Shown: positions 11,467 to 18,617 of the stretch, piece after piece | How the letters are laid out: each line of letters opens with the position of its first letter | Numbering within the stretch: the first letter of the stretch is position 1 | Origin: Planctomycetota bacterium | GTDB lineage: Bacteria > Planctomycetota > B15-G4 > SIAN01 | Assembly (NCBI GenBank): GCA_031409275.1 | Contig: JANNXA010000051.1 | Span: 256,001 to 320,000, forward strand | DNA: 64,000 nucleotides | Direction of reading: 5' to 3' | Translations under genes and position numbers: made by a program | Notes under the pieces: model-generated | Seen by the model: the letters and a program-made list of their open reading frames with translations, nothing else | Told to the model about the DNA's origin: nothing | The model's database searches: none

Positions 11467-12393
11467 TCAGCTCGATGCGATGCGGCCCGCGCGCTGCACC
11501 GTGACGACGCCCAGCAGCACCAGTCCCATGCCGATGAAGAAGGGCCAGCCGAGCGGTGCTGCCACCGCCGCGCCAAGCCACGCCGGCCCCACCACGGCGA
11601 GCGTCGACTGGAGCAGCGCGGTGGCGGGCGGCTGCGCGTTCATGCAGACGGCGACCTGCACCGGATGGAGGTGCTTCAGCAGCTGGCTCCACAGCAGGTT
11701 CATCGTGACGCTGGTGATCACCACCATGTAGGCGAGTCCGAGCCACGCCGTTCCCGGAACGCTCGCCCACACCGTCTGCTTCAGCGCGAGGCCGCCGATG
11801 GGCATGGTCGCCAACGCGCCGAGGATCAGCGTCCACGCAGTGATGGTGCGCGGATCGTGATGGCGCGACAGCGCGCGCGTGGCCACGGTGCAGAAGACCC
11901 AAGCGGCCACTGCGGCCAGCAACAGCAGATCGCCCTGGCGCACCTTGGCCGCCGCCTCACCTTTGGTCCACGGTTCGAGCACCACCACCGCGCCCGCCAG
12001 CGCGACCAGCACCCCCAGCAACTTGGCGCGCACCGGCAGGCGCCGCTCGAGCCCACTGGTCAGCAACAGCACGCCCAGCGGCGTCAACGCATAGAGGAGC
12101 GCGCCGTGGCTCGGGACGCTGGCCTTCAGCCCGCGCAAGAAGAGGTACTGGTTGATCGGCACGTGGAGGACGCCGAGCCCGAAGAGCTTGGCCCACGTCG
12201 GCCCGTCGAAATTCGGTTTCGGGATCAAGGTGCCGGTCAGCGCCAGCAGCACGAACGTGGTGCCGAGCGCGCGGGCGAGCGTCAGTGCTTCCGGCGAGCG
12301 GAAGCCATCGGCGGCGAGCTTGCTCAGCACGTAGGTGCCGGCGGCGCAGGCGACGTGGGTCGCCATCAGGACGAACTGGGTGGAGCGTTTCAT
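11467..12393 (-). CDS. DMT/EamA-family transporter
   Basis: About 10 TM segments in two repeats ('LYALTPL', 'GDLLLLAAVAAW', 'MNAQPP'). Start at MKRSTQF. Confidence 0.85.
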   Translation of the reverse strand: MKRSTQFVLMATHVACAAGTYVLSKLAADGFRSPEALTLARALGTTFVLLALTGTLIPKPNFDGPTWAKLFGLGVLHVPINQYLFLRGLKASVPSHGALLYALTPLGVLLLTSGLERRLPVRAKLLGVLVALAGAVVVLEPWTKGEAAAKVRQGDLLLLAAVAAWVFCTVATRALSRHHDPRTITAWTLILGALATMPIGGLALKQTVWASVPGTAWLGLAYMVVITSVTMNLLWSQLLKHLHPVQVAVCMNAQPPATALLQSTLAVVGPAWLGAAVAAPLGWPFFIGMGLVLLGVVTVQRAGRIASS

Positions 12394-12407
12394 GAAGGGG
12401 CGCGATC

Positions 12408-13202
12408 CTACGCCTGCAGTCCGTCGAGTTCGCGCTCGCTGAAGCCCGCGGCGAGGCGGCCGGCGCGATCGAGCGGCGCGGCGGCGGCGCGGCGCGGTCG
12501 CAACGGCCGCGCGAGCGCGAGGAAGTGCGTCTCGGCATCGAGCCCGCGCCGCGCGCAGGCGTGGCGATGCCAGCGGGTGCCGATCGCCACGTGGCCGATC
12601 TCGTCGCGGTAGATGCGATCGAGCAGCGTGGCCGACTCCGCATCGCCGGCCGCGCGCAGCTCGAGACGCAGCTTCGCCGAAACGTCGAGCCCCTTCGCCT
12701 CCAGGACGCGCGGCACGATCGCGAGGCGGTCGACCAGCTCCGGAAAGCGCGTCGCCGTCTCCCACAGCCCGAGGTGCAGCGGCTCCTCGCCGAGCTCGCC
12801 GCCGAGCTCGCGCAGCCGCCCCAGCAGCAGACGGGCGTGAAGCGCCTCCTCGCCCGCGATGCGCAGCATGTCGCGGTAGTAGTCGCGCTCCTCGCCAGGG
12901 AACTCGCCCACCGCCAGCAACGCGAGTTCGATCGCGCACAGCTCGATGTGGGCGACCGAATGGAGCAGCGAGCGGCGCCCGCGAGGATCGCGCAGATCGG
13001 CGCGACGGCGCGTGCTCAACGACCCGGTGACCACGACTTGCGGTGGACGCGCCGGACGCTGCGATGGGCCGCGCTCGAACGCGGGATCGAGCGCGCCGAC
13101 GCGAGCCGCGGAGCACAGCGCGTCCGCGGCCGCGATCTTGCGCTCGAGGTCCGGTTCGGCGAGGACGGCGGCGACGTCGGCGGCGAGACCGGTCGCGCTC
13201 AT
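12408..13202 (-). CDS. Ferritin-like di-iron protein, DUF455 family
   Basis: 'LHSVAHIELCAIEL', 'EEALH', 'VPRVLEAKGLD', 'IYRDEIGHVAIG' ExxH motifs. ATGA-coupled to the upstream ADH. Confidence 0.85.
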   Translation of the reverse strand: MSATGLAADVAAVLAEPDLERKIAAADALCSAARVGALDPAFERGPSQRPARPPQVVVTGSLSTRRRADLRDPRGRRSLLHSVAHIELCAIELALLAVGEFPGEERDYYRDMLRIAGEEALHARLLLGRLRELGGELGEEPLHLGLWETATRFPELVDRLAIVPRVLEAKGLDVSAKLRLELRAAGDAESATLLDRIYRDEIGHVAIGTRWHRHACARRGLDAETHFLALARPLRPRRAAAAPLDRAGRLAAGFSERELDGLQA

Positions 13203-14197
13203 GCGAGCGGGGTGCTTGCGTGACTCGACGAGACGTCGATGACGACCTTCAAGATTCCAGGCTGCGCCGCATGGGCAAGCGCCGCCGCGGCCTCCGCCAG
13301 CGGATAACGCGCGACGATCAGCGCGGTCGGGTCGACGAAGCCCTCGCGCATGGCGGCGAGCGCCGGGCCGAAGGCGCCGCAGCGCGAGCCGATCAGCGTG
13401 ATCTCGTCGACCACGAGGGCCGCGAGCGAGAGCGTGGACGCCGTTTCGGTGGTGGTCTTCAGGACCAGCGTGCCGCGTGGCGCGACGCGCGCGAGCGCGT
13501 GGCCGACGACGTCGGCGCGGCCGCTCGCTTCGACCACCAGCTCGTGGCGCGCGTGCGGCGAACGGGCGAACGGCGTGGTGCCGTCGACGAGCGGCTCGCC
13601 CAGATGGAGCGCGCCCGTCGGCAGCAGCGGCGCCCGCTCGGGATGGCGGCCCGCCACCAGCACGGCGACGCCATGCAACGCGAGCGCGTGCGCGCAGAGG
13701 ATCCCGAGCCGACCGTCCCCCACCACCAGCGCGCTGCGCACGCTGCCGAGGTCGACCTGATCCGCGATGGCGAAGGCGGCCGCGAGCGGCTCGGTGAAGA
13801 GCGCCGCGTCGTCGCTGATCTCGGGCGGAAGCGGGTGGAGGTTCGAGGTCGGGAGCGACAGCTGCTCGGCGAAGGCGCCCGCGCGGCCGAGGATTCCCAG
13901 GACCGTGCGAGTCGCGCAATGACGCTCGCGACCGTTGCGACAGCGATCGCAGCGCCCGCAACTCGCGTTGATCTCGCCGACCACGCGTTGGCCGGCGAGC
14001 GGCCCATCCAGCGCCACGCCGACGAACTCGTGGCCCGGCACGCCAGCGAATCCCATGTAGCCGCGCAGCAGCGCGAGGTCGGTGGCGCAGATGCCGGCGG
14101 CGCGCACCGCCACGCGCGTCTCGTTCGCGACGGAGGCGGGTCGCTCGACGTCGTCGCGCACCGTCGCCCGGCCGCCGCCGATCACCAGCGCGCGCAT
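13199..14197 (-). CDS. Zn-dependent alcohol dehydrogenase-like (MDR) protein
   Basis: GICATD, GHEFVG, CxxCxxC-x7-C structural Zn site, EPLAAA, GDGRLG, GSRCG. Confidence 0.9.
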   Translation of the reverse strand: MRALVIGGGRATVRDDVERPASVANETRVAVRAAGICATDLALLRGYMGFAGVPGHEFVGVALDGPLAGQRVVGEINASCGRCDRCRNGRERHCATRTVLGILGRAGAFAEQLSLPTSNLHPLPPEISDDAALFTEPLAAAFAIADQVDLGSVRSALVVGDGRLGILCAHALALHGVAVLVAGRHPERAPLLPTGALHLGEPLVDGTTPFARSPHARHELVVEASGRADVVGHALARVAPRGTLVLKTTTETASTLSLAALVVDEITLIGSRCGAFGPALAAMREGFVDPTALIVARYPLAEAAAALAHAAQPGILKVVIDVSSSHASTPLA

Positions 14198-14210: not shown

Positions 14211-14441
14211 TCAGCGACCGACAGCCTTGAGCAGCGCCTTCGGGTCGTAGCCGACCATCACCTTGCCGTCGACGACGATGGTCGGAGTGCTCATCGAGCC
14301 GAGTTCGAGCAGCTGCTCCTGCACGCCGTCGTCGGCGACGTTGCGCGACTCGAACGGCACGCCCACCTTCTTCAGCAGCTCCATCGCGGCGTGGCACGGA
14401 CCGCAGCCGGGCGACGTGTAGACGATCACTGAATTGGCCAT
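14211..14441 (-). CDS. Glutaredoxin/NrdH-like redoxin (CGPC), copy 3
   Basis: MANSVIVYTSPGCGPCHAAM..STPTIVVDG. Strong SD AAAGGAGG 4 nt upstream of ATG 14441. Confidence 0.9.
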   Translation of the reverse strand: MANSVIVYTSPGCGPCHAAMELLKKVGVPFESRNVADDGVQEQLLELGSMSTPTIVVDGKVMVGYDPKALLKAVGR

Positions 14442-14469: not shown

Positions 14470-14703
14470 TCAGCCCTTGACGAGCTGAAGCAGGCGCTGC
14501 GGATTGAAGCCAACCATCATCTGTCCGTCGACGAGAATCGTCGGCGTGCTGCTCGATCCGAGCGCGGCGAGCTCCTCGCCCGCCTGCTCATCGCTCGCGA
14601 CGTCCTTGGCGATGAACGGGATCTTCTGCGCCGTCAGGAACTCCATGGCGCGATGGCACGGCGGGCAACCGGGCTGGTGGTAGACGACGATCTTCTTGTT
14701 CAC
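14470..14703 (-). CDS. Glutaredoxin/NrdH-like redoxin (CPPC), copy 2
   Basis: VVYHQPGCPPCHRAMEFL..STPTILVDG. SD GAGGAG upstream of GTG. Confidence 0.92.
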   Translation of the reverse strand: MNKKIVVYHQPGCPPCHRAMEFLTAQKIPFIAKDVASDEQAGEELAALGSSSTPTILVDGQMMVGFNPQRLLQLVKG

Positions 14704-14709
14704 AGGGGT

Positions 14710-14801
14710 CTCCTCGATGAGCTCCTGCGGAGGAGCCAGGAATGAACGAGCGGGGCGGCAACCATTGCGATGGTCGCAGCACCCCGCTCTCCCTGCGAGG
14801 G
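14710..14801 (-). promoter_or_regulatory. Structured intergenic RNA between the Sec and Cys redoxin genes (possible attenuator or translational switch)
   Basis: Hairpins CCCU-CGC-AGGG (14791-14801), an 18-bp stem with a 2-nt bulge and CGCA loop (14748-14789), and GCUCCU-CCGC-AGGAGC (14721-14736). The CUCCUC of the last is also complementary to the SD GAGGAG (14710-14715). Confidence 0.45.
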
Positions 14802-14812
14802 GATCCCGTCGA

Positions 14813-15046
14813 TCAGCTCTTGGCGAGCTGGAGCAGCCGCTGCGGGTTGAAACCCACCAGCATCTGCCCGTCGATCACGATGGTCGGCGTGCTCATCGAC
14901 CCGAGGGCCATCAGCTCTTCCGCCGCCTTCTCGTCGACCGTCACGTCCTTCTCGACGAACGGGATGTTCTGCTGCGATAGAAACTCCATCGCGCGGTGGC
15001 ACGGGGGTCAGCCAGGCTGGTGGTAGACGACGATGTTCTTCGCCAT
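14813..15046 (-). CDS. Selenocysteine-containing glutaredoxin/NrdH-like redoxin (U-P-P-C), copy 1; not in the ORF track
   Basis: Translates MAKNIVVYHQPG-U(TGA 15010-15008)-PPCHRAMEFLSQQNIPFVEKDVTVDEKAAEELMALGSMSTPTIVIDGQMLVGFNPQRLLQLAKS. It is 58/77 identical by hand alignment to copy 2, with TGA exactly at the N-terminal Cys, and has a downstream SECIS-like hairpin. Confidence 0.9.
14974..14992 (-). promoter_or_regulatory. Bacterial SECIS-like hairpin of the seleno-glutaredoxin
   Basis: GCGAUGG-AGUUU-CUAUCGC is a 7-bp stem starting 16 nt after UGA. It depends on AT-ending codons TTT and CTA, whereas the Cys paralog uses TTC CTG and lacks the stem. Confidence 0.75.
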
Positions 15047-15252
15047 GACGGCGGGGGCCTCGATGTTGGATTGCGAACGGGCCCCTCGCTCGCACGATGC
15101 GGGCGGCGGCCACTGGAGGGCGAGCACGATAGCGCCGACGCCATGCCGTCGGATCGCAAGGGCTGCTCTCCCGGGGATCCATGCCGCAGGTCGGTCGGCG
15201 GTTTCGAAGCGCCACTTGCCCGGGGCGCTGGGCCGACGTCAGATGCGCCGCG

Positions 15253-16124: not shown

Positions 16125-18617
16125 TCAGTGGTGCGGCGCGCCGCCGCCCTGCCCCACCACCGGCAGCAGCTTCACCGCCCCCTTCGCGTCGCCACCGAAC
16201 GACAGCGTGTCCATCGGGCAGACCGTGACGCAGATGCCGCAGCCGATGCAGCTCGACGTCGCGTTGTCGAGCACGTCCTGCTTCAGCGCGTACTGCATCA
16301 CGGGGATGCCGACCTGGCAATTGCGACTGCACTCGCCGCACGCGATGCACTTGTCGTTGGAAACGATCTTGAACCGGCTCCAACCCATGCGGGCGTAGAA
16401 GGCCGAGAGGTACTGCATCAACTTGGCGAGCGGGCACCAGAAGCGGCACCACACCTTGCCGCCGAGGAACGGATAGAGCGTCACCGGCAGGATGCCCACC
16501 AACCAGACATCGGCGACGACGCGATAGAGCCGCATCCCGAACTCAGCCTTGTTGTTCCAGAAGCCGTAGTCGGTGCCGCCGAAGTTCACCGCGCCGAGCA
16601 GATGGAAGCCGTCCCGCATCAGCATCAGCAGCGTCACCACGAACGCGGCGATCAGGATGAAGAGCCCCATCATCTCGTAGCGGATCGAGCCCTTGCCTTT
16701 GGGCGCGAGATGACGCCAACGGTCGCCGAAGGTCTCGGCGAGGCCGCCGCACCCGCAGATCCAGGAGCAGTAGCGCTTGCCCTGGAACACCACCAGCAGC
16801 GGGATCACGACGCAGGTCAGCAGCACGCCCCACACGACCCACACCTGATGGGGCTGATAGAAGAACGAATAGAAGAAGAGCGGCCACGCATAGACGACGC
16901 CGTAGCTGCGCCACGCTTGATCGGCGAAGGTCGGATCGTTGGCAAGCTGCGTCCCGACCCACTGGTACTTCACCGCCCACTGGAAGAGGAACTCGGGCAC
17001 CAGGAAGAACATCACCCACTGGAACGAGAGCAATGACGTGTAGCGCCAGACCTGGAAGCGATCCTTGCGCTCGAGGCCCCAGCGCTTCAGCGCGCGCAGC
17101 CCGAAGACGGTCATCAGCGACGTGTAGAGGACCGTGTACCAGAACGACCAGCCGCGATCGGCGAAGCTGAGCGCCTGGTAGCCCCATCCGGTGTAGGGCC
17201 AGAACTCATCCTTGCCGCTGGTATCGGCCTTCACGCCGTAGATCGAGTACCAGACCAGGAACGACAGCGAGAGCCACGACCAGCGGTCTCCCCTCGCGCC
17301 GGTTCGCACCAGCGTGCCCACCGCCGCCGCGGTCAGCGCGAGCCCTCCCCACCACGGAACGAAGTCGAGCGCGATGCCGCTGCCGTCGCCGAAATGGAAG
17401 GTCTGGGCGATCCACGACGCGCCAAACCAGGTGAAGCGCGCTTGTCCACCGAAGTGCTGGCCGAGCCAGAGGATCCCGAACAGCGCCGCCACGGCGAGCA
17501 GCAGCGCCCGCAGCGGCCGCCCGCTCCACTCGTTCTCGAGCCTAATGCCGAGCGACTTCAGGAACGCCACCGGCAACTCGGCGCCAATCAGGACGAACGC
17601 GTGGCGGGTCGGGACGACGCGCTCCTCGCGATGGCCGCCGCGATCGACGACCAGCGTCGCTTCGCCGGCCCGGAACTCCTTCACCTCGCTGTTCAGCGCC
17701 ACCTCGATGCGCTTCTGAGCGATGGCGGCGTCGAGCTGACGTTGGTTCTCCTTGAAGACGCGCGCGAACTCGCTGCCGCGGTAGGAGAGGACCACCTTGT
17801 TCTTCTCGGCGAGCGTCAGCGCCGCCTCGATCGCGCTGTTGCCGCCGCCCACGACCAGCAGCGATTCACCGACGTATTTCCGCGGCGAGTAGAGGCGGTG
17901 ATAGACGTGGCCAAGCTCCTCGCCCGGCACGTTCAGCTTGCGCGGATTGCCGCGCTGCCCGGTCGCCAGCACGATCTTCTTCGCGCGGTAGCTCCCCTTC
18001 GGCGTCGTCGCGACGAAGTGGCCGTCCTTCTTCTGGAGCTTGGTGAGCGGCTCCTCGGTGCGCACTTCGAGCGCGTTGTCGCGCACGATCTGGTGCCACC
18101 GTTGCACCAGTTCCTCCTTCTGCGCGCCATCGAGCCACAGCTTGCCCTTCGGCGGCACGCTGTCGGGCTCGGCGTAGACCCACTTCCCCTCCGGGAACTG
18201 GTCGATCGTGTTGGCGATGCGCTCCTTCTCGAGCACGACGCACTTCCAGCCGCGCTCCTTCGCCGCCAGCGCGGCGTTCAGCCCCGATGCGCCCGCGCCG
18301 ATCACCAGCACGTCGAGCAGCGTCGCGTCGGTCGCCGCGGCCGGCTTCGCCATCTCGGGTCGTGTCGCGATCCAGTCGATCACTTCGACGCCCTGCGCCA
18401 TCGCGAGCTTGATCACCGGCGCGCCGGCGAGGTCACCGATCACGTGGAGGCCCGGCACGCTCGATTCGTTGCCGGAATGCAGCTCGGGGCGGCGCGAATC
18501 ACCGTTGCCGCTTTCGAGGATCAGCTGCAGCGAATCGCGCAGCTGCTTGGGCGCGAAGCGCTGCCACAGCGGCGCTCGAGCGGGCGGCGTGGCGGCCGGG
18601 GTCGTGGTCGCGCTCAC
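16125..18617 (-). CDS. FAD/NAD(P)H pyridine-nucleotide oxidoreductase fused to a NapH/RdxA-like membrane polyferredoxin (about 830 aa)
   Basis: GAGASG, ATG..PRKL.VPGE and GGGNSA motifs, then multiple TM segments, CSWICGCG, CRFWCP and two CxxCxxCxxxC(Q/P) motifs. GTG 18617 overlaps the upstream TGA. Confidence 0.85.
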   Translation of the reverse strand: MSATTTPAATPPARAPLWQRFAPKQLRDSLQLILESGNGDSRRPELHSGNESSVPGLHVIGDLAGAPVIKLAMAQGVEVIDWIATRPEMAKPAAATDATLLDVLVIGAGASGLNAALAAKERGWKCVVLEKERIANTIDQFPEGKWVYAEPDSVPPKGKLWLDGAQKEELVQRWHQIVRDNALEVRTEEPLTKLQKKDGHFVATTPKGSYRAKKIVLATGQRGNPRKLNVPGEELGHVYHRLYSPRKYVGESLLVVGGGNSAIEAALTLAEKNKVVLSYRGSEFARVFKENQRQLDAAIAQKRIEVALNSEVKEFRAGEATLVVDRGGHREERVVPTRHAFVLIGAELPVAFLKSLGIRLENEWSGRPLRALLLAVAALFGILWLGQHFGGQARFTWFGASWIAQTFHFGDGSGIALDFVPWWGGLALTAAAVGTLVRTGARGDRWSWLSLSFLVWYSIYGVKADTSGKDEFWPYTGWGYQALSFADRGWSFWYTVLYTSLMTVFGLRALKRWGLERKDRFQVWRYTSLLSFQWVMFFLVPEFLFQWAVKYQWVGTQLANDPTFADQAWRSYGVVYAWPLFFYSFFYQPHQVWVVWGVLLTCVVIPLLVVFQGKRYCSWICGCGGLAETFGDRWRHLAPKGKGSIRYEMMGLFILIAAFVVTLLMLMRDGFHLLGAVNFGGTDYGFWNNKAEFGMRLYRVVADVWLVGILPVTLYPFLGGKVWCRFWCPLAKLMQYLSAFYARMGWSRFKIVSNDKCIACGECSRNCQVGIPVMQYALKQDVLDNATSSCIGCGICVTVCPMDTLSFGGDAKGAVKLLPVVGQGGGAPHH

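Follow-up and report, generated by a model that had tools for sequence, protein, structure and literature searches.

How bacteria swap selenocysteine (Sec) enzymes for cysteine (Cys) versions is only partly known. Cys isoforms rise under selenium limitation in Treponema primitia (PMC3892789) and in Methanococcus maripaludis (PMC11097638), and, as far as the available portions of these reports go, selenium sensing has so far been described as self-polarity in Treponema and as the work of a repressor with an unknown signal in Methanococcus. In T. primitia, according to the accessible text, transcription of fdhF-Sec stops at the SECIS region without selenium, and fdhF-Cys rises (PMC3892789). In the locus considered here, a Sec glutaredoxin-like gene (grx1) is followed by two Cys paralogs (grx2 and grx3), and the RNA of the first spacer may, judging from its predicted folds, form part of a selenium switch of a different design.

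Coordinates refer to the window, i.e. the whole stretch of 64,000 nucleotides that was analysed, and the features of the locus are collected in table 1. The in-frame UGA of grx1 is its codon 13 (15010-15008) and aligns with the Cys of homologous proteins within the redox motif (UPPC versus CPPC, CAPC or CGPC). The protein matches the Pfam Glutaredoxin model (E 6e-16), its top NCBIfam model being TIGR02196, with a score under the cut-off of that model; Sec glutaredoxins already appear as a listed selenoprotein family in the available part of a published survey (PMC13188914). The host genome (G000), whose relatives are labelled Planctomycetota, has a GC content of 69% and contains selA, selB, selD and the tRNA-Sec gene (selC); it also encodes Rho and RNase Y. 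The selD gene itself carries one TGA. Further in-frame TGAs aligned to a paralog Cys were seen on contigs C7, C9, C28, C34, C45 and C47, in peroxiredoxin-, TlpA- and thioredoxin-like genes, seven of which were folded, all with hairpins after the TGA. A second tandem Cys/Sec pair, which from reading its sequence we take to be MsrB-MsrA-like, lies on contig C37 (60777-62855, plus strand); its Cys copy precedes its Sec copy, the identity around the active site is 73%, and no motif common to this pair and the grx spacer was found (105 and 167 of 300 shuffles). On the strand of grx1, some 1 kb before it (16125-18617, minus strand), a YpdA/thioredoxin-reductase-like FAD domain is fused to a membrane region and a 4Fe-4S dicluster domain, and this fusion could be a reductant partner.

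Table 1. Genes, signals and RNA segments of the grx locus, in window coordinates (P, pairing probability).
Feature	Position	Strand	Basis or details
grx1, glutaredoxin-like (YruB/NrdH-type) selenoprotein, UPPC	14813..15046	minus	translation, Pfam
grx2, CPPC Cys paralog, GTG start, 77% identity to grx1	14470..14703	minus	
grx3, CGPC Cys paralog, 51% identity to grx1	14211..14441	minus	
Zn-ADH-like, DUF455 and EamA, closely packed downstream genes	11467..14197	minus	Pfam, gene calls
TATCGT, candidate -10 promoter hexamer of the grx operon	15126..15131	minus	putative promoter role
In-frame bacterial SECIS of grx1	14970..14992	minus	5' arm 14992-14986, apex 14985-14978, 3' arm and 4-nt tail 14977-14970
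P0, coding strand (codons 28-30)	14958..14965	minus	predicted partner 14810-14803
Stop-proximal segment	14796..14810	minus	P0 partner 14810-14803, segment A 14800-14795, P1 anti-SD strand 14807-14796
P2, 18-bp hairpin, terminator-like	14748..14789	minus	10+8 bp, CU bulge, CGCA loop
Segment B, base of P2 5' arm	14782..14787	minus	pairs with segment A (14800-14795)
Anti-SECIS, 15 nt perfectly complementary (8+7) to the SECIS arms	14767..14781	minus	8-nt SECIS apex looped out
Weak U-rich tail/linker GUUCAUUCC	14739..14747	minus	3' of P2
H3 hairpin	14721..14736	minus	P 0.96-0.99 in both genomes
SD of grx2, GAGGAG	14710..14715	minus	same letters in G004 and L052

A consensus promoter and terminator scan of the region called nothing. 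The hexamer TA[TG][CG]GT lies 51-128 nt 5' of gene 1 in all nine Sec loci examined, and in the 3.2-kb locus L017 it is present in a single copy, with none in the spacer (chance mean 0.75). It is likely the -10 box of this lineage, overlooked by the sigma-70 consensus scan.

Bacterial SECIS elements are hairpins that closely follow the UGA and carry a G in their apex. That of grx1 begins 16 nt after the UGA, and the segment following codon 13 folds at -8.8 kcal/mol or better in 20 of 21 distinct TGA alleles versus 3 of 21 Cys alleles. Sec insertion in grx1 thus relies on an ordinary SECIS within the reading frame and does not require the spacer, whose interpretation as a 3'-UTR SECIS of the archaeal/eukaryal type was rejected for this reason as well as because single-copy Sec orthologs lack this spacer. 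The in-frame AUG of Met20 (14989-14987) sits in the SECIS 5' arm, and gene callers begin a 58-aa product there; re-initiation at Met20 after termination at UGA13 would affect any coupling model.

The spacer between grx1 and grx2 measures 109 nt (14704-14812, minus strand) and that between copies 2 and 3 measures, as given in the original prediction, 28 nt. Three consecutive hairpins had been described in the former, and all of them can be read in its letters. The largest, P2, an 18-bp stem followed by GUUCAUU, is borne out by folding (-32.1 kcal/mol, z -5.9, 0 of 200 shuffles as good), the spacer as a whole having a z of -3.5, and H3 also stands (P 0.96). The first one (hairpin 1, CCCU-CGC-AGGG) does not: its P is about 0.01, it is not retained in the congeneric genome G004, and contigs from two other runs lack one of its Gs (deletion at 14791). 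Structural conservation, proposed as a check of the original prediction, was found for P2 and H3 in G004, two complete homologs being available. P2 is 86% identical between these genomes, and four-fold sites in the adjoining genes differ by 22-53%; across three sequences, P2 is paired in 52 of 54 cells, with four one-sided changes that keep the pair and no double change. In H3, two pairs have changed on both sides between G000 and G004, in the structural register, while its loop sequence differs in G004 and the hairpin is absent from loci L043 and L050. The U tail contains four U among eight positions, and all nine of its positions are the same in G004, which adds a 1-nt insertion. The spacer RNA structure is real and selected, though unlike its first description.

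An Rfam scan of the spacer returned no family at the gathering score, only a chance match (E 2.6). Several other readings of the spacer were considered. A REP- or MITE-like dispersed repeat, named as a possible refutation of the original prediction, is contradicted by its single genomic copy (one full-length match, the next at E 0.026). The resemblance to the region 5' of grx1 that a duplicate would show is marginal in G000 (13 of 300 shuffles) and not seen in G004. A stoichiometry element processed by RNase E seems less likely, as RNase E/G was not found in any of the eight genomes of family f1 (G000-G007; 70-94% complete).

The three-gene array occurs in 2 of the 42 genomes of the class, G000 and G004, and no further tandem array was found in a 401-genome sample of the phylum or in viral contigs. 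The search for homologs yielded 16 related proteins, and 3 of 22 metagenome loci carry tandem arrays: L052, which is G004-like with the 5' part of grx1 missing, L043 and L050. The G004 spacer is 79% identical to that of G000, and in grx2 the two genomes differ at 5 of 77 second codon positions and at 19 of 36 four-fold sites. The spacers of L043 and L050 do not align with the G000 spacer (68 and 250 of 300 shuffles, respectively). In a protein tree of 77 columns with many open forks, copy 2 of G000, G004, L052 and L043 group together (99/86), and the L050 copy is placed elsewhere, without firm support.

The upper 5' arm and loop of P2 form an exact complement of the SECIS arms, present in one copy in the genome and hereafter called the anti-SECIS. 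The p-values attached to it are post hoc, as the pairing was found after several other pairings had been examined: a 15-bp Watson-Crick two-helix match to the SECIS region was reached by no shuffled spacer out of 1000 and by none of the 531 other spacers of G000 (spacer backgrounds, here and below, rest on crude gene calls from our own model), and a 15-bp match at any place in grx1 by 1 of 150 shuffles. When the last 195 nt of all 1281 genes of the genome were compared in this way, 22 genes gave such a match; among eight other candidate selenoprotein genes of G000, not one gave it against its own SECIS region. With G-U pairs allowed, a 15-pair match as in G000 is seen in 17 of 531 spacers and 10 of 500 shuffles. 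In G004, where a loop change from A to G gains one pair, the match is 16 bp long with one G-U (5 of 531 spacers, 9 of 500 shuffles), and its Watson-Crick-only score is an ordinary 8. Unrestricted duplex energy in G000 is not exceptional (379 of 2000 shuffles, 174 of 530 spacers). G000 and G004 are the only complete homologs, and between them the helix displays no two-sided covariation, both partners being conserved for other reasons; the anti-SECIS is missing from the tandem loci L043 and L050.

Two mutually exclusive folds are predicted for the RNA that runs from grx1 into the spacer. The OFF fold combines the SECIS, P2 and the U tail, plus P1 in relatives, whereas the predicted ON fold consists of the SECIS arms paired with the anti-SECIS (15 bp), A:B (6 bp) and P0 (8 bp), and covers 21 of the 23 nt of the P2 5' arm and loop. 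P0 is present in the MFE and centroid structures of both the nascent and the full RNA, and it has undergone a compensatory synonymous change, since the Pro29 codon (CCG in G000, CCC in G004) covaries with the spacer (CGGGAU and GGGGAU, respectively). In the model with a ribosome stalled at the UGA, A:B has a P of 0.59 in G000 and 0.99 in G004. For the nascent RNA 14995-14766, which extends from 13 nt past the UGA to the P2 loop, the ON fold is both MFE and centroid (z -4.2, 0 of 200 shuffles); the full RNA reverts to SECIS plus P2. When a ribosome is masked at the UGA, the anti-SECIS helices have a P of 0.96-1.0 in both genomes while the P2 3' arm is hidden, and P2 takes over at equilibrium after about half of this arm has emerged, complete P2 lying below the ON fold by 10.9 (G000) or 3.5 (G004) kcal/mol. 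Because equilibrium favours P2 as soon as its 3' arm has emerged, any switching would need to be kinetic. If the UGA carries no ribosome, the probability of the ON fold in G000 is limited to about 0.05-0.7. Moving the masked ribosome to codons 40-78 leaves the anti-SECIS at P 0.9-1.0, the pairing being lost or partly lost only at codons 20-30; because a ribosome beyond codon 40 leaves the pairing intact, the gate would not be of the trp type, and gating rests on an assumed occupancy of the SECIS by SelB.

The capture of the P2 arm stands out to varying degrees from backgrounds. No shuffled P2 arm matched the observed coverage (0 of 237 in G000, 0 of 236 in G004), and the target ranks first among 108 real post-stop hairpins (50 of 158 having been dropped as short), or at 16 of 158 under a looser definition of the arm. 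Arm-freeing energy (top 6%, 9 of 158) and its ribosome-dependent difference (top 22%, 34 of 158) were poor discriminators. The grx1 coding RNA is also unusually structured, with a z of -3.3 in G000 and -2.9 in G004, or -4.4 and -4.7 once 47 nt of spacer are included; in the five single-copy Sec orthologs, all z values lie between -1.6 and 0.0 (-1.8 to 0.0 with spacer). The 3' codons of grx1 had been considered as an antiterminator pairing with P2, and this was rejected since those codons fold locally instead.

From these models, we propose that the spacer could be a SelB/SECIS-gated attenuator that turns the Cys glutaredoxin backups on in low selenium, a reading to which we give about an even chance. 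A working selenoprotein gene would then be its own selenium sensor: when SelB-Sec-tRNA does not occupy the SECIS, the 5' arm of the terminator that follows the gene would invade it and thereby turn on the tandem Cys copies; on this point too our confidence is divided in equal parts. With selenium, SelB-GTP-Sec-tRNA would hold the SECIS, or a ribosome would cross it, so that P2 could form and transcription would end in part at the weak U tail; in G004-type alleles, P1 would also shut the grx2 SD. Without selenium, ribosomes would halt at codon 13 and leave the SECIS exposed. The P2 arm, as it emerges, would anchor on the single-stranded SECIS tail of 4 nt and displace the SECIS stem; P2 would not form until the U tail had been passed, allowing expression of grx2, grx3 and the genes that follow them. 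That SelB-GTP-Sec-tRNA may protect the SECIS when selenium is present is suggested by analogy with the E. coli selAB element. The sign of the switch, Cys copies being up in low selenium, fits the physiology of T. primitia and M. maripaludis. The view in the original prediction that Sec decoding of grx1 may set the expression of the Cys paralogs has gained support from this analysis, but by way of a different structure; this support does not extend to the switch between the H3 arm and the SD that the prediction named.

Other tandem and non-tandem loci bear on how general such a logic could be. In L047 and L048 (2232-2240 in both), the DUF455 start overlaps the stop of a single-copy Sec grx gene (GTGA), and DUF455 translation likely depends there on Sec read-through, as this arrangement of the reading frames suggests. 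Genes downstream are thus presumably wanted with selenium too, a point in tension with the attenuator reading, for which the terminator would have to be leaky. In L043, the 3' part of the untranslated grx1 RNA hides the hairpin arm (11 of 251 shuffles); in L050, arm capture by this part is not beyond chance (30 of 292 shuffles), and two non-tandem control loci gave 152 of 240 and 90 of 283 shuffles. The z of the coding RNA is -1.8 in L043 (-3.0 with spacer) and -0.8 and -1.4 in L050. According to these models, related lineages (L043, perhaps L050) might have arrived at a like switching logic through other parts of the untranslated gene.

Contigs from other sequencing runs offer further variants. 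In runs X5 and X6, the two listed differences within the spacer (14802 and the 14791 deletion) are both at positions that stay unpaired in the ON fold. A contig of run X8 changes 14760, and a change also at its P2 partner 14775 would break one anti-SECIS pair. One 151-nt contig of X8 (depth 3) skips 138 nt (14572-14709), so that the start and active site of grx2 are gone; the gap lies at a 7-letter repeat common to the SD and grx2, and the spacer part has 9 differences over 83 nt. This contig possibly derives from a strain that has lost grx2 and relaxes the element, or is an artefact. RNA contigs of a G004-like relative (two runs, depth 3-4) span grx1 and stop about 12 and 51 nt into the spacer, and no long grx2 contig is found among the RNA contigs listed; as the contig ends differ, they were set aside as evidence.

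The main rival to the selenium-gated attenuator, which we regard as unlikely while granting it real weight, was already named as a fallback in the original prediction: P2 with its U tail would act constitutively, either as a leaky terminator inside the operon or by stabilising the 3' end, and so hold the level of grx1 mRNA above that of the genes behind it. The match to the SECIS would then be due to chance or a relic of duplication, and a selenium effect would amount to polarity, with downstream expression lower if UGA13 is unread. Indeed, hairpins as strong as P2 occur in 71 of 531 co-directional spacers of 70-160 nt in G000, and weak-U tails form a genome-wide class, at least four U in eight positions being found for 33 of 175 strong post-stop hairpins versus 8 of 175 on the mirror side (Fisher p 4e-5). 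Hairpins also lie 3' of single-copy Sec and Cys-only grx genes, complete P2 has a P of about 1.0 in every equilibrium state, Rho is present, and internal terminators with long GC stems and few U are described in the available part of one source (PMC9045158). However, this explanation leaves unaccounted for the 15-16-bp SECIS complement, the compensatory change in P0 and the full coverage of the arm, as well as the excess structure of the grx1 coding RNA in two genomes compared with single-copy orthologs. A duplication relic is further weakened in that the spacer resembles the region 5' of grx1 only marginally, as mentioned above, and that this resemblance is not seen in G004.

The accessibility of the grx2 SD leads to another explanation. 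In G000, 297 co-directional spacers bear an SD, and 233 of them can form an anti-SD helix of at least 6 bp; the grx2 SD, with an opening cost of 6.7 kcal/mol versus a median of 7.2, is not unusually hidden. Its conserved partner is the segment just 3' of the grx1 stop (P1), not the H3 arm: 10 of 12 register pairs are formed in G000, 11 of 12 in G004 and 10 of 12 in L052. P1 has a P of 0.97 in G004 and of 0.00 in G000 when 35 nt of gene 2 are added, and it tops the suboptimal folds of the G000 spacer taken alone. With the first 12 nt behind the stop masked, opening the SD becomes cheaper by 6.9, 5.9, 8.7 and 2.8 kcal/mol in G004, L052, L043 and L050, respectively, for a background in which 1 of 219 spacers reaches 5.9 and 14 of 219 reach 2.8, and six grx-DUF455 (non-tandem) control spacers give at most 1.3 kcal/mol. 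This relief, together with the overlap of DUF455 with the Sec gene stop in L047 and L048, agrees with positive translational coupling, in which P1 would hide the grx2 SD until a Sec read-through ribosome at the stop opens it, the Cys copies being co-expressed partners rather than backups. We nonetheless judge coupling improbable. In the G000 spacer the relief is only -0.1 kcal/mol at +12 and 1.8 at +18 (30 of 219 background spacers), P1 could equally be a lock of the OFF state, given that P0 and A:B of the ON fold draw on its 5' strand, and the anti-SECIS is left unexplained. For the attenuator reading, locking the ON fold lowers the SD cost from 6.5 to 4.9 kcal/mol in G000, the whole RBS being unchanged, and from 9.5 to 5.8 in G004; as the SD is freed so little in G000, the output here would be mainly transcriptional.

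It is also conceivable, although we think it very improbable, that the anti-SECIS acts on grx1 itself or on RNA decay and protects downstream expression without a terminator switch, either by unfolding the SECIS transiently or by compacting untranslated grx1 RNA so that Rho or RNase Y sites are hidden. In keeping with such a role, little of the coding RNA stays single-stranded in the ON fold, the genome encodes both Rho and RNase Y, and the U tail is weak; yet the strand that is captured is precisely the P2 5' arm, an indication that P2 is the target, and the SECIS is restored in the full RNA. Finally, we give almost no credence to the fold first put forward, in which the H3 5' arm toggles between its own stem and the SD while a ligand or protein recognises three CGC(A) loops, for although the complementarity exists in the sequence and H3 is conserved, the pairing has a P of 0.004 here and 0.000 in G004 and is at chance level (similar pairings in 233 of 297 spacers), and neither hairpin 1 nor the loop sequence of H3 is kept in G004.

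If the selenium-gated attenuator is true, about 300 nt would hold a selenium switch free of any protein regulator, in which a recoding signal is reused as an antiterminator, and other genomes could be searched by a simple rule, namely for SECIS complements downstream of selenoprotein genes. A full-text literature search, covering few subscription papers, found no SECIS associated with an antiterminator, attenuation or a leader peptide.

In the models, the element works like an attenuator: decoding of the upstream ORF depends on the sensed amino acid, Sec at codon 13 of grx1, and mutually exclusive antiterminator and terminator folds are predicted beyond shuffles; yet a ribosome at the leader stop does not block the antiterminator. 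As in the trp-type attenuators of E. coli, in the accessible account of which such folds are set by translation at a limiting codon (PMC3892789), the segment right 3' of the upstream stop pairs with the terminator 5' arm. The trp type uses a dedicated leader peptide, whereas here a complete, conserved enzyme gene would serve as the leader. The SECIS, as the antiterminator partner, lies about 190 nt upstream, and the tail is poor in U; with a ribosome at the stop leaving the pairing in place in the model, the gate would be SECIS occupancy. Like internal intrinsic terminators and the stem-loops of selective RNA processing and stabilisation, the locus has, between the first gene of an operon and the next, a long GC-rich stem whose tail is low in U (PMC9045158, PMC4423207, as far as their available parts go). 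Such elements are described as setting fixed ratios, and the accessible portion of one source (PMC9045158) does not speak of any alternative pairing with coding RNA upstream.

Among selenium-dependent systems, the fdhF-Sec/fdhF-Cys pair of T. primitia is similar in that Sec decoding affects transcription past the SECIS (PMC3892789, available text), but the proposal for the present locus is that the SECIS pairs with a hairpin further downstream and so lets transcription continue into the Cys copies. The 5'-UTR element of E. coli selAB likewise relies on SelB-GTP-Sec-tRNA bound to a SECIS-type hairpin as a selenium sensor, which represses; in the part of the report available, it is a non-coding decoy located 3 nt from the SD and acts by a steric block of translation (bioRxiv 10.64898/2026.03.03.709296), whereas the present locus has a working in-frame SECIS that would act by a proposed long-range strand exchange. 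Lastly, HrsM of Methanococcus, as far as the accessible text describes it, keeps Cys backups off with selenium and on without it, as proposed here, but does so as a LysR-type DNA-binding repressor at separate operons (PMC11097638), in contrast to the RNA switch within a single operon that we propose.
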